A DNA stretch of 64,000 nucleotides, taken from NCBI GenBank assembly GCA_025993875.1, contig JAMQHH010000005.1:8183-72182 (forward strand), written 5' to 3'. Every line of letters begins with the position of its first letter. Position 1 is the stretch's first letter. Origin of the DNA: Candidatus Dojkabacteria bacterium. GTDB taxonomy: Bacteria; Patescibacteriota; Dojkabacteria; J137. The position numbers were made by a program, and so were the translations under genes. Under the pieces are notes generated by a model that saw nothing but the letters and a program-made list of their open reading frames with translations, had not been told where the DNA came from and did not search any database. This document shows positions 1 through 14,147 of the stretch, piece by piece.

Positions 1-120
1 TCTTTTACACTATTGGCGTTGATAAACCATACATAAATTCATTAGTACCTACTTTTGGTTATTTGTTATCAACCATGACACTTGGCGTAATTAAAAATAT
101 TTGGATTAAAATACAAAGCG

Positions 121-327
121 ATGGAAGAAAATAAATTCTACACAATCGAACAGGTAGCTGAAATGTTACAAGTTGTTTATCTGACGGTTTATCGCTGGAT
201 TCAAGATGATAAATTAAAGGCCGTTAAGGCAGGTAAACAGTATCGAATTAGGCAATCTGACTTAGATAAGTTTTTAGAAGCAAAAGATAAGTCATTTGCA
301 AAGGGTGTTGAAAATGGAGGTAAGTAA
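121..327 (+). CDS. Excisionase/AlpA-family helix-turn-helix DNA-binding protein (putative recombination directionality factor)
   Basis: 68-aa ORF. The segment YTIEQVAEMLQVVYLTVYRWIQDDKLKAVKAGKQYRIRQSDLDKFL has the look of small excisionase-family HTH proteins. It is the first gene of a recombinase-bearing module. Confidence 0.55.
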   Translation: MEENKFYTIEQVAEMLQVVYLTVYRWIQDDKLKAVKAGKQYRIRQSDLDKFLEAKDKSFAKGVENGGK

Positions 328-418
328 AAGCCAAAAACCTTTACAGGGCTTATTTGTTTAGGAATCGTCCATTTGCAAGACGCCTTGAAAATGAGTAATA
401 GTTATTACAAATAAAATT

Positions 419-943
419 ATGATTCATATAGTAATGGGTATTTCTGGAAGTGGTAAGACAACTGCTTCGAAGTATCTTGCAGAAAAGTTAGATGCTGAAA
501 TAATAAATACTGATGTACTGCATTCGCTTTTATTCCCAAATGGTGAAAGAACCGAAACAGGTGATTTTACGCCAGAACAATTAGCAGAAATATATAGGTG
601 TTTAAGACCGCTTGCTTATTATCTGTCAAAGACAAGTCCTACAAAACATATAATCTTCGAAGGTAATTTTAGATTCAAATCACAGCGAGATTTTATTACC
701 GAAATGATGAAGGCAGAAAATTTATCTTACAAAATTTTGTTTATTCAAATAGGCAACGATGCAATAGCAGAAAAGCGCATTACTAATAGGCACTTGAATG
801 AAGGTGCTCCTGATACTTACGAAGATTATTTGAAAATAAAGCAGGTATATGAAAAGCCTGATGACGCCTATATTATCGATAATTCAGACGATGTTGGTTC
901 TTTTGAAACCAAATTAGATGACTATATAAAATCTATTTCTTAA
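419..943 (+). CDS. P-loop kinase-like protein (AAA_33 / zeta-toxin-like fold)
   Basis: Walker A GISGSGKTT near the N-terminus and a lid-like RITNRH segment; 174 aa. An EEP gene follows immediately. Confidence 0.55.
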   Translation: MIHIVMGISGSGKTTASKYLAEKLDAEIINTDVLHSLLFPNGERTETGDFTPEQLAEIYRCLRPLAYYLSKTSPTKHIIFEGNFRFKSQRDFITEMMKAENLSYKILFIQIGNDAIAEKRITNRHLNEGAPDTYEDYLKIKQVYEKPDDAYIIDNSDDVGSFETKLDDYIKSIS

Positions 944-953
944 TTACAGTGTT

Positions 954-1745
954 ATGAAACTTCTAAACATAAATGTGGGCATAAAGATTAACAATACTCT
1001 GGAAGTCGGCAATTACATTAAAGAGCAAAATGCAGATTTTGTTGCAATTCAGGAAATTGTCAGGCATCTTGAAGATAGTGTCTACGATGAATTTCGTTCA
1101 AAAGCAGGTGTTGAAGAAATATTAGGTAAGTTGTACCCACACAACTTTTTTGGAGCACTTTGGGTCACCGATGCTTTTAGAAAAGGTGGTAAAGTACATC
1201 GTGACTTTGGCGGACACATCGAACAGGGTAACCAGATTTTATCGAAATATGAAATTGTAGAAGGAACTAATGAGCATTACTATAAAACATATTCTTATGC
1301 CAAAGATTGGACTAATTGGCGTGATGAAGACCACGGCAGGGCTGTTCTAATAAGTGAGTTTAATGTTAGTGGGAAAAGGTTACAAATATTAAATCTTCAC
1401 GGAATCTGGACACACGATAAACAAGGCGATAATAGAACTATTGCCGAATGTGAATATGTTCTAAAAGCTGCAAAGCGTAAAGATATACCAACAATTATTA
1501 CAGGTGACTTCAATTTATTACCAGAAACAGAATCTATAAGGATACTCAATAAGGAGTTTACTAATCTTATTTCCGAATATGGAATAACTTCAACACGTCC
1601 GCATTTTGATGATGGAACTGACAAAGGCAACCAAGTTGTTGATTATATTTTTGTGAATAACGGAATTAAGGTAAACAGCTTTGAAGTACCTGAAACGGAT
1701 GTATCTGACCATTTGCCGTTAATTTTGGATTTTGACATTAAATAA
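954..1745 (+). CDS. Endonuclease/exonuclease/phosphatase (EEP) family protein
   Basis: N-terminal ...DFVAIQEI (catalytic Glu region) and C-terminal SDHLPLILDF (EEP signature His motif). Tightly linked to the kinase-like gene upstream. Confidence 0.7.
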   Translation: MKLLNINVGIKINNTLEVGNYIKEQNADFVAIQEIVRHLEDSVYDEFRSKAGVEEILGKLYPHNFFGALWVTDAFRKGGKVHRDFGGHIEQGNQILSKYEIVEGTNEHYYKTYSYAKDWTNWRDEDHGRAVLISEFNVSGKRLQILNLHGIWTHDKQGDNRTIAECEYVLKAAKRKDIPTIITGDFNLLPETESIRILNKEFTNLISEYGITSTRPHFDDGTDKGNQVVDYIFVNNGIKVNSFEVPETDVSDHLPLILDFDIK

Positions 1746-3323
1746 ATGAAAAAAGCCATAATACTTGCCCGTGTATCAACTCCTGAACAGGAAAAGACAG
1801 GATTATCACTGGAAGACATTCAGTTACCGCAAATGCGTGAATATGCCCTTGAAAAAGGGTTTGTTGTTGATAGCGAGTATGTATTTCAAGAAACCGCCAG
1901 CCAGAAACTTAGAAAAAAGTTTGATGAAATGGTTGACTATGTCAAAAAGAGTAAAGATATACGAGCGATAATCGCATTTAGGGTTGATAGAATGACCAGA
2001 AACTACCGTGATGCTGTCGAAATGGATAATTTACGGATTGAATATCACAAAGAACTTCATTTCGTGAACGACAGATTGATGTTAGATGAAAATAGTGTCG
2101 GTCGGGATATTCAAGATTGGGACTTAAAAGTGTTTTTAGCAAAACAACATATAAACCGTTGCCAAGAAGATGCCCATAATACTCTTCAATCAAAGTTAAA
2201 GTCAGGTGGTACTTACGGTCGAGCACCTTATGGATATAGAAATATCAGTAAAGAAGAAGAAAGAAATAATCTAAATCTACCTCGTGTAGTTGTCGAGCCG
2301 TTCGAAGCAGGAATTGTTAAGAAAGTTTTTGATTGGTATACAACAGGCTCAGATTCTTATTTATCCATTGCAAATCGACTACACAAAGATTATCCAACAC
2401 AATTTCCAGTGCTAAAAACAGCCAGACGGAAAGTCGAGAATATTATAAAGAACCCTTACTATCACGGCGAACGTGAATACAAAGGTAAAATCTATCCGCA
2501 CAGATTCGAAACCATAATTCCAAAAGAAGTATTTGAATTGGCAACGGAAAAAAGAACTGGTCGAGCAAGAGTAAAGGATAAACAAAAGAAAGTCACAAAA
2601 TCAATCTATGGCGGTCTTATAAGATGTTCAGAATGTGGATGTGCATTTAGTCCAAGCCCAAATAGACATACTCGTTTAGGGCGTGAAGTTGAAAGCGATA
2701 CTTATTACTATTGCACTAATTCAAAACGACAACACGAACAAAAGCCGCCTGGAACTAATGATAAAGAATTAACTGAACAATTTGCCAAACTATTCAAATC
2801 AATAAAGATTCCACAAAAAGACTTAGACAAACTAACCAAAACACTTCGTGACTCACACGAAGGCAAGAAAGCATTTACGATTGCGGAAACACAAGAATGT
2901 CGAACACAAATAGATAAACTACAAAGACGAATTGAAAATGCTTATGAAGATAAACTTGACGGCAGTATTACTACCGAACAATATAACAAATTCCGTGAAA
3001 ACTGGACTAAGCAAAAAGAAGAATATGAAGGCAAACTGGCAAGAATTAGTAAGGCAGATAAAGAGTACTATATTACGGCATCTTACTTACTGGAATTGGC
3101 ATCTCGGAGTTATGAATTATTCTTAGGTTCTGAACCTGAACAAAAAAGGCAGATTATCACATTAACACTTCAAAACCTTACTTTGAAAGATGGAAACCTT
3201 TGCTATGATTGGGTTAAACCCTTCGACAGTATCTTCGTTTCGGCTAAAAGTCACAAATGGGGTAGATTATGGCGAGAAATACGAACTGCTCTAATGGCTC
3301 ATTATATTGATTTAGCAATATAA
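1746..3323 (+). CDS. Large serine recombinase (integrase)
   Basis: N-terminal resolvase catalytic region AIILARVSTPEQ with Ser nucleophile, a recombinase domain, the Cys-rich zinc ribbon CSECGCAF...YYYCTN and a C-terminal coiled coil; 525 aa. Its last ~12 codons overlap a degenerate copy of the tRNA-His 3' end (3255-3286). Confidence 0.9.
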   Translation: MKKAIILARVSTPEQEKTGLSLEDIQLPQMREYALEKGFVVDSEYVFQETASQKLRKKFDEMVDYVKKSKDIRAIIAFRVDRMTRNYRDAVEMDNLRIEYHKELHFVNDRLMLDENSVGRDIQDWDLKVFLAKQHINRCQEDAHNTLQSKLKSGGTYGRAPYGYRNISKEEERNNLNLPRVVVEPFEAGIVKKVFDWYTTGSDSYLSIANRLHKDYPTQFPVLKTARRKVENIIKNPYYHGEREYKGKIYPHRFETIIPKEVFELATEKRTGRARVKDKQKKVTKSIYGGLIRCSECGCAFSPSPNRHTRLGREVESDTYYYCTNSKRQHEQKPPGTNDKELTEQFAKLFKSIKIPQKDLDKLTKTLRDSHEGKKAFTIAETQECRTQIDKLQRRIENAYEDKLDGSITTEQYNKFRENWTKQKEEYEGKLARISKADKEYYITASYLLELASRSYELFLGSEPEQKRQIITLTLQNLTLKDGNLCYDWVKPFDSIFVSAKSHKWGRLWREIRTALMAHYIDLAI

Positions 3324-3336
3324 TCTACTCCATAAA

Positions 3337-3786
3337 TCAATGGGTTAATTCTTTATCAGGCCAGGGATAAGGCATAAGTTCTGATATTGGAACTTGTTTT
3401 ATCTTACCTTCTTCTTCAATAATTATAACCGTGTCAATTTTGGACCTTATGCTACTTTCCCAGACTAGTTGTTTGCAGTTATGACAATTTGGTCCAGTCA
3501 TAGCTACTATCCGAGTTTCTCCATGCTGGGCTGCTCTTGCCAAAGCTACTGCCTCACTGTGCATAGTAGTATTGTGAGTATCAGACTTGTAAGAAGCACC
3601 TGTTATTACTGTACCTTTGTCTGTAAGAAGTGCAACTGCAAAGCCACTATTATTTTCAGGGAAAGTGAACTGTAGAGCCTTATCACCTTCATTCAATAAT
3701 AATTTGCAGGTTTCTTCATCTAGCTCATAAACCAAGAAACCATCATCTTTTTGCTTTGGTTCAGTTAATTTTATTTGTTGAAACAT
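3337..3786 (-). CDS. Cytidine/deoxycytidine deaminase-like protein (CDA fold)
   Basis: Zinc-binding motifs HSEAVA (the H/C-A-E motif) and PNCHNC (the PCxxC motif). Layout matches homotetrameric Cdd: FAVALLTDKGTVITGASYK...HSE...PNCHNCKQ. Confidence 0.7.
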   Translation of the reverse strand: MFQQIKLTEPKQKDDGFLVYELDEETCKLLLNEGDKALQFTFPENNSGFAVALLTDKGTVITGASYKSDTHNTTMHSEAVALARAAQHGETRIVAMTGPNCHNCKQLVWESSIRSKIDTVIIIEEEGKIKQVPISELMPYPWPDKELTH

Positions 3787-3859
3787 GGTTTTTGCAATAA
3801 AAGCTATATAAATTTTACTCTTTTTTCCACTTTACTTACGACCATTATACGACTATAAT

Positions 3860-4891
3860 ATGAATATGTTCAAGCCTAAATATACAATAACAAATACTCT
3901 TGCTACCAACATGCGTAAAGTTGGCGAAATTGTGGGAGAGCTTAATAGTAAAGTGCTTTCAAGCACTGTTCTAATGAATATGGAGCGAGATGCTAGAGCA
4001 TTATCTGCTCATTCTTCGACTCAAATTGAAGGTAACCCTTTACCTTTAACTGATGTGAAGAAAATCATTAAATCCAGACCTGAACATATTCGGGATACTG
4101 AACGAGAAGTCCTAAATTACAACAAAGCAATGTTGATGCTTGATGAGCAAATTAGAGCTGGGAAAGTTAGTAAATTATCTAATGAATTTATCTGCAAAAT
4201 CCAAAGTATAGTTATCGATGGTCTAATAAGTGAGTCATACAAGGGTAAATATCGAACAGAGCCAGTGTTTGTAAATGACCCAGTAAAAAGAGAGACTGTA
4301 TATTTACCACCTGATGCCAAAGATGTAGAAACTTTAATGACTGAGTTAGTTGAATTTATAAATGAAAATAAAGGCAAAATTGACCCTTTGATAATTGCAG
4401 GACTTTTTCATAAACAAGCAGTTGTGATTCACCCATTCATTGATGGAAATGGTAGAACTACGAGGTTAGTAACAAAAACCTTACTTGCCGAGCTTGGTAT
4501 CAATACTTTTCCATTATTTAGCTTTGAAAACTATTACAACAATAATGTAACTAGATATTTCCAAAATGTAGGGGTATTTGGAAATTACTACGATATTGTA
4601 GAAAGCATAGATTTTACCCAGTGGTTAGAGTACTTCACCGATGGAATTATTGATGAATTAAATAGGGTTAAATCGCAGTTTCCACAATATCAAGAGAGAC
4701 TTGAACCGCATCACAAACAAATTCTTGAATACATCAAAGAACATGGCTCAATTACAATGAGAGAGTATGAAGAAATTACAGACAGAGCAAAAGCAACAAG
4801 GATACAGGACTTTAAGAAGTTGGTAGATTTAGGGCTGATTGTGCCTGTAGGGGCTGGCAAGGCTACTTATTATATTTTGAAAAGCGAATAG
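3860..4891 (+). CDS. Fic family AMPylase, class II (intramolecular inhibitory helix) with C-terminal winged HTH
   Basis: Fic motif HPFIDGNGRTTR. The N-terminal inhibitory motif STQIEGN fits [ST]xxxE[GN]. The C-terminal ILEYIKEHGSITMREYEEITDRAKATRIQDFKKLVDLGLI is wHTH-like. Confidence 0.85.
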   Translation: MNMFKPKYTITNTLATNMRKVGEIVGELNSKVLSSTVLMNMERDARALSAHSSTQIEGNPLPLTDVKKIIKSRPEHIRDTEREVLNYNKAMLMLDEQIRAGKVSKLSNEFICKIQSIVIDGLISESYKGKYRTEPVFVNDPVKRETVYLPPDAKDVETLMTELVEFINENKGKIDPLIIAGLFHKQAVVIHPFIDGNGRTTRLVTKTLLAELGINTFPLFSFENYYNNNVTRYFQNVGVFGNYYDIVESIDFTQWLEYFTDGIIDELNRVKSQFPQYQERLEPHHKQILEYIKEHGSITMREYEEITDRAKATRIQDFKKLVDLGLIVPVGAGKATYYILKSE

Positions 4892-4916
4892 TTAAATATT
4901 TTTTACTTTTACATTT

Positions 4917-5639
4917 ATGAATGATGAAATAGAAGCAAAATTTAGAAAAGTGGATAAAGATGAAGTTCGAACAAAGTTGCAGCAAGCGGGAGCTAGTCTG
5001 TTAAAACCTGAATTTTTGCAAAAAAGAGTTGTATTCAATCTACCCACCCTAGAATCGAATCTCCCTGAAATGCCAATAATAGAAACTATTGATGGTTCTG
5101 ACTTTGTAGTTTTTGAAAACGACAAAAAAGTTAAGGTCAGCAATGGAGCTAATGCCCAACAAATAATCGAAACAATATTTTCGACCGATATTAGGGCAAG
5201 AGCTAACAAGGGTTGGCTTCGAGTTAGAGACGAGGCAACTAGGATTACAATGACCTACAAAAGACAGGATAGTTCTTTGATTGATGGAATGAGAGAAATT
5301 GAAGTTACTGTAGATGATTTTAACTTAGCTTTTGAATTATTGACCTATCTAGGATGTAAATATAAAGCATATCAAGAAACTAGACGAGAGTTATGGGAGC
5401 TTAATGGTGTGGAAGTCACTATTGATGAGTGGCCTTATTTAGAACCTTTTGTCGAGGTTGAAGGACATTCAGAAGGAGAAGTTAAAGAAGTGTCTAATAC
5501 GCTTGGTTTTGAGTGGGAAACTGCTCACTTTGGTGCAGTTGATACTTTATATTCTGAGAAATATGGCGTTACAGAAAAGCACATAAACGAAGAGACACCT
5601 GAGATTCTATTTGATAAACCAAATCCTTTCACTAAATAA
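4917..5639 (+). CDS. CYTH / triphosphate tunnel metalloenzyme domain protein (CyaB/ThTPase-like)
   Basis: N-terminal EIEAKF (ExExK signature), then LRVRDE, TYKRQ, REIEVTVDD and ELWELNGVEVTIDEWPYLEPFVEVEG, the acidic tunnel residues typical of CYTH. It has a ~50-aa insertion after strand 2. Confidence 0.65.
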   Translation: MNDEIEAKFRKVDKDEVRTKLQQAGASLLKPEFLQKRVVFNLPTLESNLPEMPIIETIDGSDFVVFENDKKVKVSNGANAQQIIETIFSTDIRARANKGWLRVRDEATRITMTYKRQDSSLIDGMREIEVTVDDFNLAFELLTYLGCKYKAYQETRRELWELNGVEVTIDEWPYLEPFVEVEGHSEGEVKEVSNTLGFEWETAHFGAVDTLYSEKYGVTEKHINEETPEILFDKPNPFTK

Positions 5640-5760
5640 TTTAATTTTTATTCTATGAACACTAAAATGAACACCACAAACGAATACTATGATAATATTA
5701 TGGTTTATTCCAGACCGTCTAAACACTCACTTTGAAAATTAAATTATTAACTAAAAAATT

Positions 5761-6798
5761 ATGAGCAAAATACGCTACCAAAATGAGAAGATGAAGCGAA
5801 AGTATTTCGATTGGGCAAAGGGAGCTTTGGGTTACTCAGATAAAACCATGAAGGTTAAAGAAGCAGCTTTGTGGAAGTACGATGAATATACAAAGAATCA
5901 GGATTACAAAAAATTTAATGCTGACTCAGCAAAGGGTTTTAAGAAATGGCTTGAAGTAACTAAGAATAAAAATACTGGTAATACACTAGATAAGACTACC
6001 CAATACAGCGTATTGCGACATGTGAACCATTTCTTTAATTGGCTATCTATGCAGTCAGGCTACAAGTCGAAAGTAACGATGGATGATGTAGCTTATTTAA
6101 GACTAAGCAAAGCAGATACCAAGATTGCAACTAGTTCTAAAATGCCAAAGTATCCAAGTCTAGCTTACATTCAGAAAATGTGTAGTTTCCCTATTGAAAA
6201 TGAGATTGACCAACGAGACAGAGCCTTAATTGCTTTTACAGCTTTATCAGGGATGCGAGATTTAGCGATTATTAGTTTACCTATTGGCTGCTTTGCTCCT
6301 GAGAAATTACTTATTGAACAAGACCCAGCACAAGGTGTAAAAACAAAGTTCTCCAAAACCATATATACAACGCTTTTTAAGTTTGATGATACCCTTCTAA
6401 ATTATATTTTGGAGTGGCATCAATTTTTAAGAAAAGAGAAACTATTTGATAATAGTAACCCACTATTCCCAGCAACTAAGATTGAACTAGCGAGTGAAAC
6501 TCAACATTCATTTATTGCAGCAGGTGTAGATAAAGTTTACTGGGCTGACACTAATCCAATGCGAAAGATGTTTCGAGCAAGAGCCGAACAGATGGGTTTG
6601 GAATACTACTCACCTCACAAGTTCAGGCATTTTGCGATTAGTGAAGCTAACAAGTATGCAATTGGGGCAGAGCAAATGAAAGCAATTAGCCAGAATGTTG
6701 GGCATGAGAGGTTAACAACAACTTTTTATGGATATGGAGCAGTTGATAACTACCGAGTCTCTGACATTATTTCAAGTATGGAGTTTAAGGGTAAGTAA
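5761..6798 (+). CDS. Tyrosine recombinase / phage-type integrase
   Basis: C-terminal catalytic signature ...RALIAFTALSGMR..., HKFRHFAIS and GHERLTTTFYGY, i.e. the R...HxxR...Y pattern; 345 aa. Confidence 0.8.
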   Translation: MSKIRYQNEKMKRKYFDWAKGALGYSDKTMKVKEAALWKYDEYTKNQDYKKFNADSAKGFKKWLEVTKNKNTGNTLDKTTQYSVLRHVNHFFNWLSMQSGYKSKVTMDDVAYLRLSKADTKIATSSKMPKYPSLAYIQKMCSFPIENEIDQRDRALIAFTALSGMRDLAIISLPIGCFAPEKLLIEQDPAQGVKTKFSKTIYTTLFKFDDTLLNYILEWHQFLRKEKLFDNSNPLFPATKIELASETQHSFIAAGVDKVYWADTNPMRKMFRARAEQMGLEYYSPHKFRHFAISEANKYAIGAEQMKAISQNVGHERLTTTFYGYGAVDNYRVSDIISSMEFKGK

Positions 6799-6851
6799 AA
6801 TTGTCGTTTATTGTAAAAGGGATATAAAGTAAAATATTTTTAACTATAAGT

Positions 6852-8555
6852 ATGAGTAAATTTATTAAAGAACACAATTTTGCCAAGAACCGCTACTTTC
6901 TCTATGCCAGAAAGTCTAGTGAATCGGAAGACCGCCAAGTCGCTTCAATATCAGCACAAGTAGAAGTAATGACTGACGTTGCAAAAGAGCTTGGTTTGAA
7001 AATTGTCGATACTCTTAGTGAGTCTTCATCAGGATTCCATGTAGGCAGAAAAGTGTTTAATGAAATGCTGGAAAGAATAGCTAATGGTGAAGCGGATGGA
7101 ATTATTGTTTGGAAACTTTCCCGTTTGTCTCGTAACCCTGATGACGCTGGCAAAATAATGGGTATGCTTCAAAGAAAAGAAGTTAAACATATTCGTACAA
7201 TTGATAGAAACTGGCTTCCAGAAGACAATGTAATGATGATGTATGTCGAGTTTGGAGTAACCAATCAATTCAGTAGGGATTTGAGTGATGACACCACTAG
7301 AGGTTTAATCAAGAAAGCAGAAAGAGGTTGGAATCCAAAGGCTTCATTGCCACTCGGCTATATGCACTCACCCTTCAAAAAAGTTGGTGACCAAGAAATA
7401 ATGCCCGACCCAGAACGATTCGAGATAATCTCAAAAGCACTAAGAAAAGTTGCTACTGGTGAAATGCGCCCACTAATTGCTTTGAATTATGCAAATAATC
7501 TTGGTTTAAGGACTAAGAAAGGTGAGGAAGTGTCTGAAAGTGTATTCTACAGAATGCTTTCCAATCCTTTTTATTGCGGAAAATTTGAATATCCAGAAGC
7601 TAGTAGTAATTGGTATGACGGTAAGCATGAAAAAGCAATTTCAGAAGAAGAATTTGAACTAATACAAAAATACAGAGGACATAAAGATAGACCAAGACCT
7701 CAAAAGCACTTATTCCCGTATACAGGAATGATGAAATGTGGTGAATGTGGATGTTCAATTGTTGTAGACCCGAAAGTGAAGGTTCAGAAGAATGGTAATG
7801 TACACAAATATTTTTATTACCGTTGCACAAAATCCAAAGGTAATTGCAGTCAGAAGTACTTAGAAGTAACCCAACTAGAAAAGCAACTAGCTGAAATGCT
7901 TGAATCCATTGAAATACCTGATTCTTTCCATCAATGGGCATTAGATGAACTAGAGCTTGATGTTCAGAAAGACATTTCAGATAGAAATGAAATTATTGAG
8001 GCTGCGCAGAAAGGCTATGATGAAGCCCTAGAACAGATTCATAATTTGGTGAAGGGATATTCAAGTGGCAAAATTCCAGAAGAGGCTTACGATTCTAACC
8101 TTGCAGAATTTAATAAATCAAAAGCGAAATACAAAAAGATTTTAGACAATACCGACGAACGCATAGCAGAATGGACAGAACAAGCTAAAAAATCGTTCAA
8201 ATTTGCTCATGAAGCTAAACAGAAGTTTGAGGATGGAGATTTGACAGTTAAGAACGATATTTTTCTAAATTTAGGAGCCAATATTGTAATTAAAGATTTA
8301 CATCTTTCAGTTGATATAGATAAACCTTTGTTAATAATCAAGAAAGCAAAGTCAAAATTTGAGAAATTGGAGTCAACCTTCTCACCTGTCAATACCCTGA
8401 ACGGTGGGGAAAATATTGAGATTTTATCGTCTAAAAAAATCATGATGGGTGATCTGTTAGACATATTCAGAACAAAATTCCCACACTTTAATATTAGCTT
8501 GGAACAGTTTAAAATCTTCTTTCAAAACTTCGGGATTCAGCCTTTAGTTATTTAA
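6852..8555 (+). CDS. Large serine recombinase (second copy, distinct C-terminus)
   Basis: YFLYARKSSESEDRQVASISAQ (Ser nucleophile region), a recombinase domain, the zinc ribbon CGECGCSIVVDP...YYRCTKSKGNCS and a coiled-coil tail; 567 aa. Confidence 0.9.
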   Translation: MSKFIKEHNFAKNRYFLYARKSSESEDRQVASISAQVEVMTDVAKELGLKIVDTLSESSSGFHVGRKVFNEMLERIANGEADGIIVWKLSRLSRNPDDAGKIMGMLQRKEVKHIRTIDRNWLPEDNVMMMYVEFGVTNQFSRDLSDDTTRGLIKKAERGWNPKASLPLGYMHSPFKKVGDQEIMPDPERFEIISKALRKVATGEMRPLIALNYANNLGLRTKKGEEVSESVFYRMLSNPFYCGKFEYPEASSNWYDGKHEKAISEEEFELIQKYRGHKDRPRPQKHLFPYTGMMKCGECGCSIVVDPKVKVQKNGNVHKYFYYRCTKSKGNCSQKYLEVTQLEKQLAEMLESIEIPDSFHQWALDELELDVQKDISDRNEIIEAAQKGYDEALEQIHNLVKGYSSGKIPEEAYDSNLAEFNKSKAKYKKILDNTDERIAEWTEQAKKSFKFAHEAKQKFEDGDLTVKNDIFLNLGANIVIKDLHLSVDIDKPLLIIKKAKSKFEKLESTFSPVNTLNGGENIEILSSKKIMMGDLLDIFRTKFPHFNISLEQFKIFFQNFGIQPLVI

Positions 8556-9157
8556 AAACAGCTCCATTCAGTCATATTACTTGAATATCCGATAATGACT
8601 GGTATGGTTTCTGGTACTAAATCAGGATTCATTGCATAAACAGTAAGTCTTAAATGTCCTTCTAAAACTACTAATTTTTTGCCATCGCTTACCAATATTA
8701 GCTTATTAAACTTTTTACCTTTTTTAAAATCTTCACTTGCATTTAAGAATCCTTCATTACTCACTTCAAATACAGTTTTTCCTTCTTTAATTGACTTAAC
8801 AGCATCTTTTGGTAATCTACTCCCACTAGTTAATTCAGTCCAATAATCATAATCTATATAGAAAACTTGATTAAGTAATTCTTCTTTAGTTATATCAACT
8901 TCATGCCATTCGATATTGGTAGGAAAACCTTCAAATAATCCTACGTTATTATCGTAATCCCTGTATATATTAAAAAGTTTTTTCCTTGTTTGATTTTCTT
9001 CTTCATTTTTAAGGTCCGCATTAGTAATGATTTCAGTATTTGCATTTAACTTATTCAAACCTTCGGTTAGCTTATTCTTGAATCTACTGGAATCTAATTC
9101 TGCCTTTAAGAACTCTAAAATCATTATATTTTCAGTTATCTTCTTTCTGTTGTTCAT
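8552..9157 (-). CDS. Hypothetical protein (201 aa, no recognisable motif)
   Basis: Clean ORF divergent from the THUMP methyltransferase. Lys/Asp-rich and non-repetitive. No catalytic motif recognised. Confidence 0.4.
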   Translation of the reverse strand: MNNRKKITENIMILEFLKAELDSSRFKNKLTEGLNKLNANTEIITNADLKNEEENQTRKKLFNIYRDYDNNVGLFEGFPTNIEWHEVDITKEELLNQVFYIDYDYWTELTSGSRLPKDAVKSIKEGKTVFEVSNEGFLNASEDFKKGKKFNKLILVSDGKKLVVLEGHLRLTVYAMNPDLVPETIPVIIGYSSNMTEWSCF

Positions 9158-9180
9158 AGTTTTTTATATAATTCAGCTAT

Positions 9181-10212
9181 ATGAAGTATATTGCATTTGT
9201 AACAAAAGGTATAGAAGCTATTTGTGCTAAAGAACTTTCTTTGATTGAAGGGCTTACTGTTATATCTATACAGTCTAAACAGTCTAAATATGTAAGGTTT
9301 GAATATACTGATAATCCCTTAAATCTAAGCCAACTTAAAACTATTGATGATGTAGCCTTACTACTTGGTGATTTTTCATTGCAGGATATAATGGATTTAA
9401 AAATTGAGCTAAATGTTGTTCAACAGGATTTCATCCCCTTTATTTCCAAATTTAGAAGCATTTCAAATAATTTCTCGGTTACTTTAAGCAATTACAAATC
9501 CAATATTAACAAAGAAGAATTAAAACTTAGTTTACAGAAATACTTTTCTAACAGATTGAATTTATCTTATTCTGAATTGGACCATTCAAACTTAGACTTT
9601 AGAATAAACATAGAAGAAGACACTGCTTTCATTTCTTTAAAACTTTTCCCCGAAAGTCTTTATAAAAGAAGCTATAACCACACAACTACTTTAGGCAGTA
9701 TACGTTCAACTATTGCTTCAGCAATCATCTTAGAAATACTTAATAAATTAAATAAAAAGCCCAATTGTTTAAGTTTAGTTGATAACTTCTGTGGAAGTGG
9801 TACTTTTCTTTGCGAAGCTAGTTTAATGGGATTTAACGTATTTGGAGGTGATATAAAACCATCTAGTGTTACACTAACTAAGAAAAACTTAGTGAAAGCT
9901 GGTTTAAAGAATGTAGAAATTAAATTGCAAAATGCAGAACAAACAAAGTGGCAAAATAATTATTTTGATATTGCTGTTAGCAATTTCCCTTGGAACAAAC
10001 AAATTAGTGAAAGTAATTTATCAAAACTTTATGATAAATCTATTAAAGAATATGCTCGAATACTCAAAAAAGATAGTTCCTTTGGATTTATAGGAATGAA
10101 ACCTGATTTAATAAAGAAGTATATTAAAATCTACTTCCCAAATTATGAAGTTGAGGAATTTAAAATTGGATATTTAGGTCAGAATCCGACGATTTTAATT
10201 TGTTATTTATAA
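9181..10212 (+). CDS. THUMP-domain class I SAM-dependent RNA (m2G-type) methyltransferase, Trm14/RlmL-like
   Basis: PESLYKRSYNHTTTLGSIRSTIASAIILEIL...LVDNFCGSGTFLCEA matches the 'RGYR...DPFCGSGT' block of THUMP methylases. Motif IV reads NFPW instead of the canonical NPPY/F. Confidence 0.7.
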   Translation: MKYIAFVTKGIEAICAKELSLIEGLTVISIQSKQSKYVRFEYTDNPLNLSQLKTIDDVALLLGDFSLQDIMDLKIELNVVQQDFIPFISKFRSISNNFSVTLSNYKSNINKEELKLSLQKYFSNRLNLSYSELDHSNLDFRINIEEDTAFISLKLFPESLYKRSYNHTTTLGSIRSTIASAIILEILNKLNKKPNCLSLVDNFCGSGTFLCEASLMGFNVFGGDIKPSSVTLTKKNLVKAGLKNVEIKLQNAEQTKWQNNYFDIAVSNFPWNKQISESNLSKLYDKSIKEYARILKKDSSFGFIGMKPDLIKKYIKIYFPNYEVEEFKIGYLGQNPTILICYL

Positions 10213-10233
10213 TTGTAGAAATACAAAATTGTG

Positions 10234-10674
10234 TTATTTAGACGATTCTAACGCTCTGTACTTTGAATCATCAAAGTCTTTATATTTGAGCTTAAGTACT
10301 TTATCTACAATTAAATACAAATCATCTAGATACTTTTGCTTCTTGATTGCCAAAGCAGTTAAAAATAAAAGTTTTTCTAAAGAAATTATTTTATAGTCCT
10401 TCATTTCTATTGCACCATCTGAAAGGTAATCATAGTCAAATTGACAAATTGTTTTCCAAATCTCAAATTCATAAACTACAATTCCAAAATCTCCCCACAA
10501 ATCTTTTAGATTACTTGGATACATTTTAGATAAGGCTTCGTAATCTTCAGTCGAAACTATTAAGTCAGTGTCCTCACCAGATTTTCTAATTTCATAATAT
10601 TCTTTTGCTTTGCCTCCTACTAGTAAAGGCTTATTTTTGAAGCTGTAGTTTAGTTTTGATAAGTCAATATTCAT
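10234..10674 (-). CDS. Putative minimal nucleotidyltransferase (MNT/pol-beta fold)-like protein
   Basis: N-terminal LLVGGKAKEYYEIRKSGEDTDLIV fits the hG[GS]xA[KR]...[ST]DxDLxV NTase signature; 146 aa. Last gene of a three-gene minus-strand cluster. Confidence 0.35.
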   Translation of the reverse strand: MNIDLSKLNYSFKNKPLLVGGKAKEYYEIRKSGEDTDLIVSTEDYEALSKMYPSNLKDLWGDFGIVVYEFEIWKTICQFDYDYLSDGAIEMKDYKIISLEKLLFLTALAIKKQKYLDDLYLIVDKVLKLKYKDFDDSKYRALESSK

Positions 10675-10677
10675 AGA

Positions 10678-11157
10678 TTAGTTATTTAATATTTCAACTT
10701 TAAAATCTTTTATATCTTTAGACTTTAATGCATCCCTAAGCTTTTGTACTATCTTAAATACAAGTTCTTTGGGAGCAAGATTTTCATCGTTAAGAAACCG
10801 TATTGTTCCTTTGCCAATAAAACCTTCGTCCGTAAAAGTGTGTCCTTCAAAAACTCTTTCTGATAAATATCTAGGTTGTAAATGTATATGAATCCTTTTA
10901 ACGTTATTCCCTTGCTGACAGTAGTTAAACCAGTCAGGATTGAAACACTCTTTTAGTAAATCCTCAGCAATTTGTCCAATTTTCTTAAAGTCTAACATCT
11001 CCTTGTCAGTTAGATGTACCATTGAACCTTCAAATGCTCTTGGAGGAAATATTATTAGCCAACCTAAGACATGTTGGTTTCCTCCAACTCCTAATGTCCA
11101 GTCATCAAATTTAGCAATATGAAGTTTTGACCATTCTTCTTTAGGTATTATCGACAT
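10678..11157 (-). CDS. HIT (histidine triad) family nucleotide hydrolase/transferase, FHIT/Hint-like
   Basis: NQHVLGWLIIFPPRAFEGSMVHLTDKEM...GNNVKRIHIHLQPRY parallels FHIT GHVLVCPLRPVERFHDL...GQTVKHVHVHVLPRK. The triad is reduced to R-x-H-x-H. Confidence 0.65.
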   Translation of the reverse strand: MSIIPKEEWSKLHIAKFDDWTLGVGGNQHVLGWLIIFPPRAFEGSMVHLTDKEMLDFKKIGQIAEDLLKECFNPDWFNYCQQGNNVKRIHIHLQPRYLSERVFEGHTFTDEGFIGKGTIRFLNDENLAPKELVFKIVQKLRDALKSKDIKDFKVEILNN

Positions 11158-11164
11158 AAATTTT

Positions 11165-11590
11165 CTACTCTAAAAGTTTAAAAAGTTTCTTAATAAATTC
11201 AGATACATCCGAGCTGCTTCGATATATTTCTTTGGCTTTAGCAATGAAATCTTGATGGTCTGGATAACCACTATCTCCTTCAGTGCCTAAAATTTGAGTA
11301 AATTCTTGAGAAGAAAGTACAACACTGTTGAATACTTCTGCAACATCCCACCATAAACCATTATTAGTATCTAAATTTTTTGTTATTTCGGGAAATTTGT
11401 CTGCAGAATATCCATAAAATATAAAGTGCATTAGTTCGTGGCTTGTTACTCTTATGCTCGAATCACATTGATAAAATATTTGGAAAGTTTTATCTTCTAA
11501 AAACCTGGGATTGCAGTTAAAAGAAGATATGTAACCTATATACTTACCTTCAGGAAATTTACAGCAATTAAAGAGTATTACGAAGGATTT
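11165..11590 (-). pseudogene. ImmA/IrrE-like HExxH metallopeptidase, 5'-truncated
   Basis: The annotated ORF starts MHFIF. The frame stays open upstream (...IFYQCDSSIRVTSHELMHFIFY...) to a stop at ~11591-11593, giving HELMH plus a downstream E..A..F..L segment typical of DUF955/ImmA peptidases. The extension has no ATG and abuts the recombinase remnant. Confidence 0.5.
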
Positions 11591-11867
11591 TTATGAAGCA
11601 AAGTGGAAAGAATACAACGCAAGACAAAGTGAAATTACTGACCAATTATCTAAGCTAACCAAATCGGATGAATCTTATTATATTACGATGGGTTATGTCT
11701 TTCAGCTTGCTCATAGTGCTTATGATTTATTTTTGTGTTCTGAAATGGAAGAAAGAAGGCAAATTATCAATTTAGTATTTCAGAACGTCAAGATGAATGG
11801 TGAAAAACTAGAATACACAATGGATGAGGCCTTTGAATTACTACGAAATTTAGACGATTGTACTATA
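11556..11867 (+). pseudogene. Serine recombinase C-terminal remnant fused to the tRNA-His 3' end (att junction)
   Basis: Translation DFYEAKWKEYNARQSEITDQLSKLTKSDESYYITMGYVFQLAHSAYDLFLCSEMEERRQIINLVFQNVKMNGEKLEYTMDEAFELL aligns with residues ~400-500 of the 1746..3323 recombinase (QYNKFRENWTKQKEEYEGKLARISKADKEYYITASYLLELASRSYELFLGSEPEQKRQIITLTLQNL...). There is no N-terminal catalytic domain, and the frame runs directly into the tRNA. Confidence 0.7.
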
Positions 11868-11944
11868 TGGGGTGGTTGGCGGGGCTCGAACCCGCGACAA
11901 CCGCTTCCACAGAGCGGCGCTCTACCAACTGAGCTACAACCACC
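11868..11944 (-). tRNA. tRNA-His (anticodon GTG), with G-1 and genomically encoded CCA
   Basis: Hand-folded cloverleaf on the minus strand: G-1, acceptor GTGGTTG/CAACCAC, D-stem GCTC/GAGC, anticodon stem CCGCT/AGCGG with loop CTGTGGA, T-arm GCGGG-TTCGAGC-CCCGC, discriminator C, then CCA. Confidence 0.85.
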
Positions 11945-12042
11945 AACACAATATCAACGTCTTGTAACAATTCTACCTAATCATTAAATTTATGTTAAAT
12001 TATAGCATTAACAGCAGCTCGTAGGCATGTTAGTATACAAAA

Positions 12043-12615
12043 GTGGACAATATTCTAAAATTAAAATATATCTACGCATCTTCTTTTATATTTTGGCTGG
12101 CATCAAATCTTGTAAGCCCGTTTTTGGTTTTATTTGCTCTTACATATATAAATGGAATCAGCGCGCTCGAAATCGGCATTGCGTCTATGTGCTTTTTTCT
12201 ATCGTTCGGTGTAAGTGTAATTTTATTTGCTACAATTGCCGATAAAATTAAAGGTGTTAAAGACGATTTCCTTATTATTTTTTGCGGTTTTATATTTAGG
12301 GGTGTTATTTTTATCTTTATCAGTGTAGTAAATAGTATATGGGGGTTTTATGTTATTCACATACTTTTAGGTCTGAGTCGAGGTCTTACGGATTCTTCGC
12401 AGGAAAAAATTATTTCTAAAATATCATCTGAGGATTTTTTGGGAAGAACATTTGGCTTAAAAATAGGACTTGTAAATATAGCTGCAGCTGCCGGCGCAGC
12501 TTTGGGTGGTATCTTTATTGATCAATATGGCTTTAATTATGTGTTTATTGCTGTCGGCATTTTAACAATAATTGCCGGATTTCTTTTTTACTATAATCGA
12601 AAGGTTATAATATAA
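12043..12615 (+). CDS. Six-TM MFS-like membrane protein (possibly a truncated half of an MFS transporter)
   Basis: Six hydrophobic helices. The TM2-TM3 loop ADKIKGVKDD resembles the MFS D-R-x-G-R-[KR] loop. At 190 aa it is about half the length of a typical 12-TM MFS transporter. Confidence 0.45.
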   Translation: MDNILKLKYIYASSFIFWLASNLVSPFLVLFALTYINGISALEIGIASMCFFLSFGVSVILFATIADKIKGVKDDFLIIFCGFIFRGVIFIFISVVNSIWGFYVIHILLGLSRGLTDSSQEKIISKISSEDFLGRTFGLKIGLVNIAAAAGAALGGIFIDQYGFNYVFIAVGILTIIAGFLFYYNRKVII

Positions 12616-13985: not shown

Positions 13986-14057
13986 TGGGTTTGGTGGGAT
14001 TCGAACCCACGACCAATCGCTTAAGAGGCGACTGCTCTACCACTGAGCTACAAACCC
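13986..14057 (-). tRNA. tRNA-Lys (anticodon CTT)
   Basis: Minus-strand cloverleaf: acceptor GGGTTTG/CAAACCC, D-arm GCTC..GAGC, anticodon stem GTCGC/GCGAT with loop CTCTTAA, T-arm GTGGG-TTCGAAT-CCCAC, discriminator A. Confidence 0.8.
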
Positions 14058-14074
14058 CATATTTAGGAAAGAGT

Positions 14075-14147
14075 TACACACGACTGGATTCGAACCAGTG
14101 ACCTACTGCTTAGAAGGCAGTTGCTCTATCCACTGAGCTACGTGTGT
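14075..14147 (-). tRNA. tRNA-Arg (anticodon TCT)
   Basis: Minus-strand cloverleaf: acceptor ACACACG/CGTGTGT, D-arm GCTC..GAGC, anticodon stem ACTGC/GCAGT with loop CTTCTAA, T-arm ACTGG-TTCGAAT-CCAGT, discriminator A. Confidence 0.8.

Follow-up and report, generated by a model that had tools for sequence, protein, structure and literature searches.

Tandem elements at a tRNA-His 3' end in a Dojkabacteria contig, probably inserted by serine integrases that carry attP within their own gene

Serine integrases of the phiC31, Bxb1, A118 and TP901-1 type share a three-domain architecture with a long coiled-coil insert, and their recombination relies on a very short shared core that leaves no long direct repeats behind. 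In these model systems, attP lies in intergenic DNA beside int. Here we describe an array of mobile elements in a 64,000-nucleotide (nt) stretch from a Candidatus Dojkabacteria bacterium (JAMQHH010000005.1, 8,183-72,182, forward strand), hereafter the window, to which all coordinates refer unless a contig is named. Its enzymes have the same architecture and its core is likewise very short; in contrast to the phiC31-type systems, these enzymes target a tRNA gene at its 3' end, and attP appears to lie inside the integrase reading frame. The array very likely consists of three elements brought to the tRNA-His 3' end by large serine recombinases (LSRs) of two related families, with attP in their own gene.

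The use of t(m)RNA genes by serine integrases was described as previously unreported in a survey of 2020, which counted 14 such cases among 297 elements (PMC7192596). Attachment sites within the integrase gene are known from the 'suicidal' integrases of the archaeal SSV1, pTN3 and pT26-2, which also target tRNA genes and whose gene is split upon integration, and integrases with this arrangement have been described as exclusively archaeal (PMC8371274). The suicidal integrases are, however, tyrosine recombinases that end up as two inactive halves, whereas the enzymes considered here are bacterial serine recombinases in which only a terminal tail of 20-35 residues, located past the last folded domain, is swapped. 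Islander/TIGER islands and tycheposon arrays also place several elements of the same orientation at one tRNA 3' end, in mixed states of decay and with presence/absence polymorphism among strains. Tandem tRNA islands are bounded by displaced tRNA fragments and rely on tyrosine integrases (PMC4383910), and a tyrosine recombinase was found in 910 of 937 tycheposons and related cryptic elements (10.1101/2020.12.28.424599). At the present locus, in contrast, only a 5-6 nt core repeats and the internal junctions are chimeric integrase genes. Literature searches on serine recombinases of the candidate phyla radiation (CPR), on serine recombinases at tRNA genes and on attP inside an integrase gene gave no description of this family. 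The enzymes themselves are serine integrases of the ordinary kind, and arrays at tRNA genes are well known; the unfamiliar features are the in-frame attP, a tRNA end as the target and chimeric genes at the junctions.

Features were detected from a list of open reading frames (ORFs), tRNA scans with ARAGORN and Rfam, and Pfam profile searches. The array comprises three LSR elements, named E1, E2 and E0, placed head to tail in one orientation; it spans about 15.8 kb, and the first 11.9 kb of the window represent its right-hand three quarters. Its main features are the following.

1-3263, plus strand: right-hand part of E1, 3.3 kb in the window; the full element is about 7.2 kb, with attL 3,968 nt left of the window
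1746-3323, plus strand: LSR1, an intact large serine recombinase with Resolvase, Recombinase and Zn_ribbon_recom domains above the Pfam cut-offs
3258-3263, plus strand: junction J2, core TGGGGT, joining the P arm of LSR1 to the left arm of E2 (P'2)
3264-3323, plus strand: P'2, left end of E2, encoding the native-type tail (WG)RLWREIRTALMAHYIDLAI and a stop codon, now used by LSR1
3264-8450, plus strand: E2, 5.2 kb, LSR2 type, bounded by J2 and J3
5761-6798, plus strand: tyrosine recombinase, Phage_integrase at 25.1 bits, slightly under the cut-off of 27.1
6852-8555, plus strand: LSR2, an intact large serine recombinase of the second family, with the same three domains above the Pfam cut-offs
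8446-8450, plus strand: junction J3, core TGGGT, joining the P arm of LSR2 to the left arm of E0 (P'0), as read from the sequence
8451-8555, plus strand: P'0 tail, left end of E0, a native-type tail MGDLLDIFRTKF... running to a stop codon, now the LSR2 C-terminus
8451-11867, plus strand: E0, 3.4 kb, decayed
11556-11867, plus strand: LSR0 remnant (P0 arm), the C-terminal 104 codons of an LSR1-family integrase, gap-free to LSR1 residues 407-494
11868-11943, minus strand: tRNA-His (GTG), intact, with its 3' end at 11868 (ARAGORN; Rfam, 69 bits)
predicted circular junction of E1: ...GTCACAAA TGGGGT CAGTTGTTGGACTCG...
predicted circular junction of E2: ...AAAATCATGA TGGGT AGATTATGGCGAG...

On the plus strand, the tRNA-His 3' end reads TGGGGT (11868-11873) and forms junction J4, the B' arm of attB. 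An earlier note on this DNA had listed an HTH protein, the two LSRs, a tyrosine integrase and a C-terminal recombinase fragment; all are found where it placed them, with Pfam and alignments in agreement, and the serine-recombinase identity that it proposed is borne out by the Pfam domains. In particular, PF00239 is matched at 42.9 bits by LSR1 and at 73.9 bits by LSR2, with PF07508 and PF13408 above the cut-off in both. The two proteins are only 23% identical. R9, V10, S11 and T12 are invariant in 32 members of the LSR1 family, and S11 is read as the active-site serine.

The different states of the site are represented in metagenome assemblies, and exact-protein look-ups found many contigs that are 100% identical to the window. 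One of these, L007, is identical over 1-11766 and extends 6,993 nt further to the left, which locates the left boundary, correctly expected by the earlier note outside the window, 3,968 nt upstream of its start. The empty site is seen in contig L100, which begins GTTTTAGAAGAACAAAGTTTCATT TGGGGT GGTTGGCGGGGCTCGAACC, that is, with the flank left of the L007 attL joined directly to tRNA-His; the first 46 bases of the tRNA are identical by direct reading, and the aligned region is 99.8% identical overall. Comparison of the occupied L007 with the empty L100 shows that the insertion runs from L007:3025 to window 11873. Contig L002, from the same sample as L100, has the same initial 30-mer and then enters the orphan tail and element, so that occupied and empty alleles coexist. 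E1 alone is found directly at tRNA-His in L106 and L108, where an LSR1 of approximately 95% identity joins this tRNA at the very same TGGGGT, the right flank of L106 being 99.5% identical to the window. The tRNA-proximal variation among near-identical strains that the earlier reading called for is therefore present, both as an empty site and as E1 abutting the tRNA. An E2-type element is also found at tRNA-His in L109, so that members of the array occur separately elsewhere, as E1 does in L001, L106 and L108.

A further copy of the LSR1 module, 93-97% identical, lies in L001 at a site without a tRNA and with different DNA on both sides. It matches the window as far as 3263, where ...CACAAATGGGGT (TGGGGT) ends, 60 nt before the LSR1 stop codon, and the similarity to L106 and L108 ends at exactly the same position of J2. 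At the left end of E1, a 78-codon ORF of L007 (2896-3132) ends in ...FIWGQLLDSFLNVSIDFKFNINNIHSLLNTGNLDLGV and a stop codon, which represents an orphan native tail at attL. L001, L002 and L012 carry the same orphan tail where the element begins on the left, and in L013 a related tail precedes the integrase. In L012, a Peregrinibacteria metagenome-assembled genome (MAG), 7 kb separate the tail from a downstream integrase, which shares 68% identity with LSR1 and continues into tRNA-His. Tails of this type form the usual C-terminus of those family integrases that do not adjoin a tRNA. Similarity among L001, L002 and L007 had suggested a left end of E1 at L007:4057, which was rejected as a mere boundary of cargo exchange; the true attL is L007:3025, the site of the orphan tail. 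The attP state is represented by L112, a contig that carries one of these integrases without a neighbouring tRNA and has a length of 6.6 kb, a terminal overlap of 30 nt, an ORF in frame across the ends and a circularly permuted gene order. Its integrase reads across attP into the native tail type and is followed by the backbone genes, the order expected of an excised circle. By comparison, attB (L100), attL (L007), attR (L106 and L108) and the attP state (L112) all share TGGGGT. Exact-pattern scans returned no empty-site match in metagenomes of the Joint Genome Institute and no E1 attP match in viral contigs.

The arrangement at tRNA-His is not peculiar to this locus. An LSR1 alignment scan of species-representative genomes yielded 80 family loci, 70 of which have enough sequence on the right to be evaluated, and in 54 of these 70 the integrase gene overlaps at its end with a tRNA on the minus strand (Asn 29, Gln 13, Trp 6, His 3, Arg 2, Ser 1). 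Mostly, the match ends at W505, whose TGG codon corresponds to the CCA of the tRNA. Five of the remaining evaluable loci have tRNA-like tails and the others native-type tails. LSR2 homologues behave like the LSR1 family at tRNA ends: they align over only about 92-95% of the length of LSR2 and then diverge, and 41 of the 120 listed homologues carry antisense-tRNA-like tails, read as mostly antisense tRNA-His. The named hosts are mainly Patescibacteria/CPR (Peregrinibacteria, Saccharibacteria and others) and Chloroflexota, together with several MAGs labelled Gammaproteobacteria.

All four junctions have in common only the 5-6 nt core, TGGGGT or TGGGT, and each of them falls within a serine-integrase reading frame. 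The core is the complement of the CCA, the discriminator and the first acceptor bases of tRNA-His and, in the integrase, coincides with codons W505-G506; on these alignments, attP is within the integrase gene at these two codons. LSR1 residues 1-504 derive from E1, and residues 505-525 from the junction core together with the E2 left end. In a cluster at 90% identity or more, with the copies of L001 and L108 included, LSR1 bears at least six different tails, all diverging after W505. The AlphaFold model of LSR1 (mean predicted local distance difference test score, pLDDT, 77.9) has long helices at 357-461 followed by a beta-hairpin, and its pLDDT falls below 50 at residues 502-505, in a linker between the last beta-hairpin/helix and a separate terminal helix. 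In this model, the breakpoint is in a low-confidence linker, with all folded LSR1 domains on one side of it, and the integrated gene probably still encodes a working enzyme.

These observations fit a mechanism in which attP and attB would be exchanged at TGGGGT. Both ends of L001 share only GGT with attP, so that the crossover would be placed at the dinucleotide GG or GT, at discriminator/acceptor positions. The tRNA would be kept intact since the element brings identical terminal bases, while the native tail of 20-35 codons would stay behind at attL and the integrase frame would be fused to the antisense tRNA or, within an array, to the tail of a neighbour, each insertion exchanging the final 20-40 amino acids of the enzyme. 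An array would grow when an incoming element recombines with the hybrid junction of a resident; each internal junction would then consist of the P arm, the core and the P' arm of the neighbour, and each integrase would bear the tail of its neighbour. The integrase would thus occur in at least three forms, with its native tail, an antisense-tRNA tail or a neighbour's tail. A spacing 5 bp longer in the P' arms than in the tRNA arm, as the model of attP versus attB sites of serine integrases would have it, was rejected, since no shift of register is seen when the E1-type P' arm is matched to the tRNA.

The internal junctions were assigned by their tails. A search for the native-tail motif in all six frames of the window gave two matches, with 0.26 expected by chance: the match at 3258 is the present tail of LSR1 and that at 8445 the present tail of LSR2. 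The LSR1 tail, WGRLWREIRTALMAHYIDLAI followed by a stop codon, recurs in two independent arrays, L014/L110 and L113/L109. In both, it stands after an LSR1-like gene and before an element that ends in a tyrosine recombinase and an LSR2-like integrase, and the latter reads into tRNA-His in L113/L109 and into a 3' end resembling that of tRNA-His in L110. The tail is WGRLWKEIRTAMMSYYLNMGI in L014/L110, with seven synonymous codon changes relative to the window, and WGSLWRDIRNAFMNYYLQLNF in L113/L109, each ending in a stop codon. Since this tail is paired with LSR2-type elements in two arrays, it was assigned to the left end of E2, and the LSR2 tail MGDLLDIFRTKF... consequently belongs to the left end of E0; under this three-element assignment, the last 35 codons of LSR2 are encoded by E0. 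The segment 3264-3336 was also considered as a decayed tRNA-His or a random pseudo-site, which was rejected because the 21-codon tail is conserved at the protein level: the L014 tail, on an integrase 55% identical, differs by seven synonymous codon changes, a related tail is present in P0016, and Rfam detects no tRNA.

The same tails bear on the possibility that only two elements are present. E2 and E0 would then form one composite integrated through the now truncated LSR0, with LSR2 lying inside it together with its own attP and MGDLLDIFRTKF... being its native tail. The current LSR2 tail is indeed of native type, and the 76% identical homologue P0123 has a related tail ending in FNIQPLLY. 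However, the WGRLW-type tail marks the left end of elements with an LSR2-like right-end integrase in two independent arrays, which leaves the MGDLL tail for E0, and other LSR2 homologues bear other neighbour-type tails, such as P0129 with an E1-type tail. A composite of this kind is therefore distinctly improbable, and three elements remain the preferred count.

Two observations on the comparison arrays stand apart from this assignment. At the far end of the array in L113 (428-1255), a frameshifted C-terminal integrase remnant is followed by TGGGGT and an E1-type tail, and the array at that other tRNA-His thus holds at least three elements. In L110 (MAG contig JBDRHZ010000043.1, 11560-11680), the LSR2-like integrase reads into TGGGGTGGCTGATGGGACTTGAACCCGCAAAG..., which resembles the 3' half of tRNA-His; ARAGORN calls no tRNA in this segment, which could represent either the remnant of a tRNA or a tRNA gene that has been interrupted.

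In the earlier note, the tyrosine integrase counted among several recombinases of a classic tRNA hotspot, in which direct repeats of 20-45 nt from the tRNA 3' end were to be sought. The protein encoded at 5761-6798 is a tyrosine recombinase: PF00589 is detected in most of its 120 listed homologues (328 at E <= 1e-5), and an alignment of 27 sequences shows R166, K196, H286, R289, H315 and Y325 to be invariant, which are read as the catalytic set. A sequence search against solved structures gave no match to it. A gene of this type stands directly upstream of an LSR2-like gene in L109 and L110 as well, and at least 24 of its homologues share the 'longest contig' figure with an LSR2 homologue. It is a conserved accessory or partner of LSR2-type elements and not the integrase of a separate, fourth element; a role in resolving multimers of the circular form is suggested. 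E2 retains its integrase and this partner, without the DUF5659, 64-amino-acid and HTH_17 genes of L109 and L110. Were the locus instead a classic island array of tyrosine integrases, the serine recombinases would be cargo and direct repeats of the tRNA 3' end would mark the bounds. The complete catalytic set and the general dominance of tyrosine integrases at tRNA sites (PMC7192596) speak for this possibility, which is nevertheless extremely improbable: the gene lies 5 kb from the tRNA, internal to E2 and always adjoining an LSR2-type gene, and all junctions are inside serine-integrase reading frames. Moreover, the 25-nt 3' end of tRNA-His occurs once in the window with up to three mismatches allowed, no long direct repeat is present, nothing beyond the 5-6 nt core recurs, and Rfam finds no tRNA fragments in the window at E <= 1. 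Repeated integration at the tRNA thus stands, whereas its mechanism differs from the one implied, with serine integrases and in-gene attP sites.

E0 is the decayed member of the array. It is devoid of any family backbone gene, and its integrase is reduced to the last 104 codons, about 400 codons having been lost. The LSR0 remnant is 36% identical to LSR1 residues 407-494 over 88 amino acids (E 4e-17, ungapped), which confirms it as a serine-recombinase C-terminus abutting tRNA-His; it matches 59 of the 80 family loci, at best with 44-45% identity. Its frame reads straight into the tRNA-His 3' end, and the junction, ...ACTATATGGGGT followed by GGTTGG, has the same form as in L106 and L108. The description of the locus as a decaying tandem array at the tRNA-His 3' end is thereby supported, with one member reduced to a recombinase remnant. 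Two parts of the earlier interpretation change: the frame running into the tRNA, taken for a by-product of internal deletion, is the normal integrated state of the family, and the different C-termini of the recombinases are tails swapped at the junctions. No further recombinase remnant was detected by tblastn in the window, megablast of 1-12100 gave no match among phage records, and ten island proteins had no match in PHROGs. As a separate observation, assemblies repeatedly break within the LSR0 remnant: L007 and L010 end at 11766, L098 apparently ends at the same point, and L105, from the same sample as L007, begins at 11798. The variants that were found branch at 11865 and leave this break unexplained.

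Several points count against the proposed mechanism. Serine integrases are neither known nor expected to recombine attP with attL or attR, which leaves array growth unexplained. All integration states come from the comparison of metagenome assemblies, and no recombination was observed. The empty site is documented by the first 24 nt of a single contig, although k-mers span the junction, and the circular-looking L112 could derive from a tandem repeat. The tail of P0123 resembles the one assigned to E0 and is compatible with the latter being LSR2's own, and ungapped dyad scores of the four attP sites and attB do not exceed shuffled controls. If related elements had instead recombined through their homology, or if duplications and deletions had shaped the array in place of successive site-specific insertions, the first of these difficulties would be avoided, given that serine integrases normally refuse reactions of attP with attL or attR. 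Such an origin would also agree with the mosaic structure of E1 copies, L002 being 100% identical to window 1-9316 but 99.0% identical to L007 overall with the differences in the left part of E1, and with cargo that varies between copies at fixed backbone boundaries. Against it, one and the same 5-6 nt core is found at each of the four junctions, and the three integrases are 23-36% identical where comparable, which implies little DNA homology for recombination; this origin of the array is thus improbable, and successive insertion by serine integrases remains the favoured reading. Insertion into a resident attL or attR gives identical junctions, so that the order of insertion cannot be read from the structure. 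An order based on the state of decay was considered and rejected, since the array of L113 has its decayed integrase at the greatest distance from the tRNA. The exchange of tails might itself be functional, with the enzyme sensing its free or integrated state and biasing integration against excision, and it might permit recombination at hybrid junctions, which would account for the growth of arrays; this is a tentative idea, possible though on the whole unlikely.

The remaining genes of the array are listed below.

121-327, plus strand: HTH_17 protein (excisionase/MerR-like), E1 backbone; Pfam HTH_17, E 3.5e-16
419-943, plus strand: AAA_33 kinase-like gene, E1 cargo; Pfam
954-1745, plus strand: endonuclease/exonuclease/phosphatase gene, E1 cargo; Pfam
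3337-3786, minus strand: cytidine deaminase-like gene, E2 cargo; Pfam
3860-4891: SoFic-type Fic gene, E2 cargo; Pfam, and PADLOC SoFic at E 9.6e-50
4917-5639: CYTH-domain gene, E2 cargo; Pfam
9181-10212: methyltransferase, E0; Pfam
within 8451-11867, minus strand: other E0 genes, namely a gene of 201 amino acids and three small genes

E1 is intact and recently mobile. Its backbone consists of a SpoVG-like gene, a 382-amino-acid protein and the HTH_17 gene, found in 48, 55 and 29 of the 80 family loci, respectively, with the HTH_17 homologues upstream of the LSR; the HTH_17 protein is a candidate directionality factor or regulator. The genes at 419-943 and 954-1745 have no homologue in other family loci and are therefore cargo and not backbone. 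Apart from the integrase, no backbone gene is more conserved than that of the 382-amino-acid protein, which is encoded outside the window (L007 5674-6822). The protein matches neither Pfam nor PHROGs and lacks a Walker motif; it is a candidate for a protein that replicates the circular form. The cargo of E1 copies varies in the stretch from the orphan tail to the backbone, with fixed exchange boundaries: a methyltransferase in L007 (3134-4036); a 300-amino-acid gene, a peptidase S51, a second deaminase, 80% identical to the product of 3337-3786, and an aldo-keto reductase in L002 (3-2904); and a 248-amino-acid gene, a peptidase S51 and an extra 285-amino-acid gene in L001 (4420-6725). Some of the cargo relates to defence models. 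The Fic-domain gene at 3860-4891 covers the PADLOC SoFic anti-phage model almost completely, the methyltransferase at 9181-10212 partially matches the MADS mad2 model of PADLOC (E 1.6e-20), and related elements carry, among their cargo, restriction-modification genes of EcoRI, MmeI-like and type III kinds.

Beyond the array, on the 5' side of tRNA-His, a gene similar to the major facilitator superfamily (MFS) at 12043-12615 encodes 190 amino acids and matches only positions 2-172 of the 347 of the MFS_1 profile; it may be a truncated or split transporter gene. Further to the right, the similarity between L100 and the window ends at 14078, about 20 nt beyond tRNA-Lys(ctt) (window region 13986-14147), and at least 8.5 kb of other DNA (L100 2215-10772) takes the place of the tRNA-Arg(tct) of the window. 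The replacement DNA carries HTH_3, RadC, two copper-type P-ATPases and a CsoR-like repressor, and this position resembles a second site of variation, located at the 3' end of the neighbouring tRNA.

All in all, two general statements need to be qualified, namely that serine integrases avoid tRNA genes (PMC7192596) and that attachment sites within the integrase's own gene occur only in archaea (PMC8371274). A family that recognises a conserved tRNA end could also be useful, as serine integrases are widely used in genome engineering. In the CPR bacteria, which are poorly understood, these elements represent a common form of mobile DNA, compact at 6-10 kb, in which the exchange of integrase tails offers a built-in candidate for the control of recombination direction.

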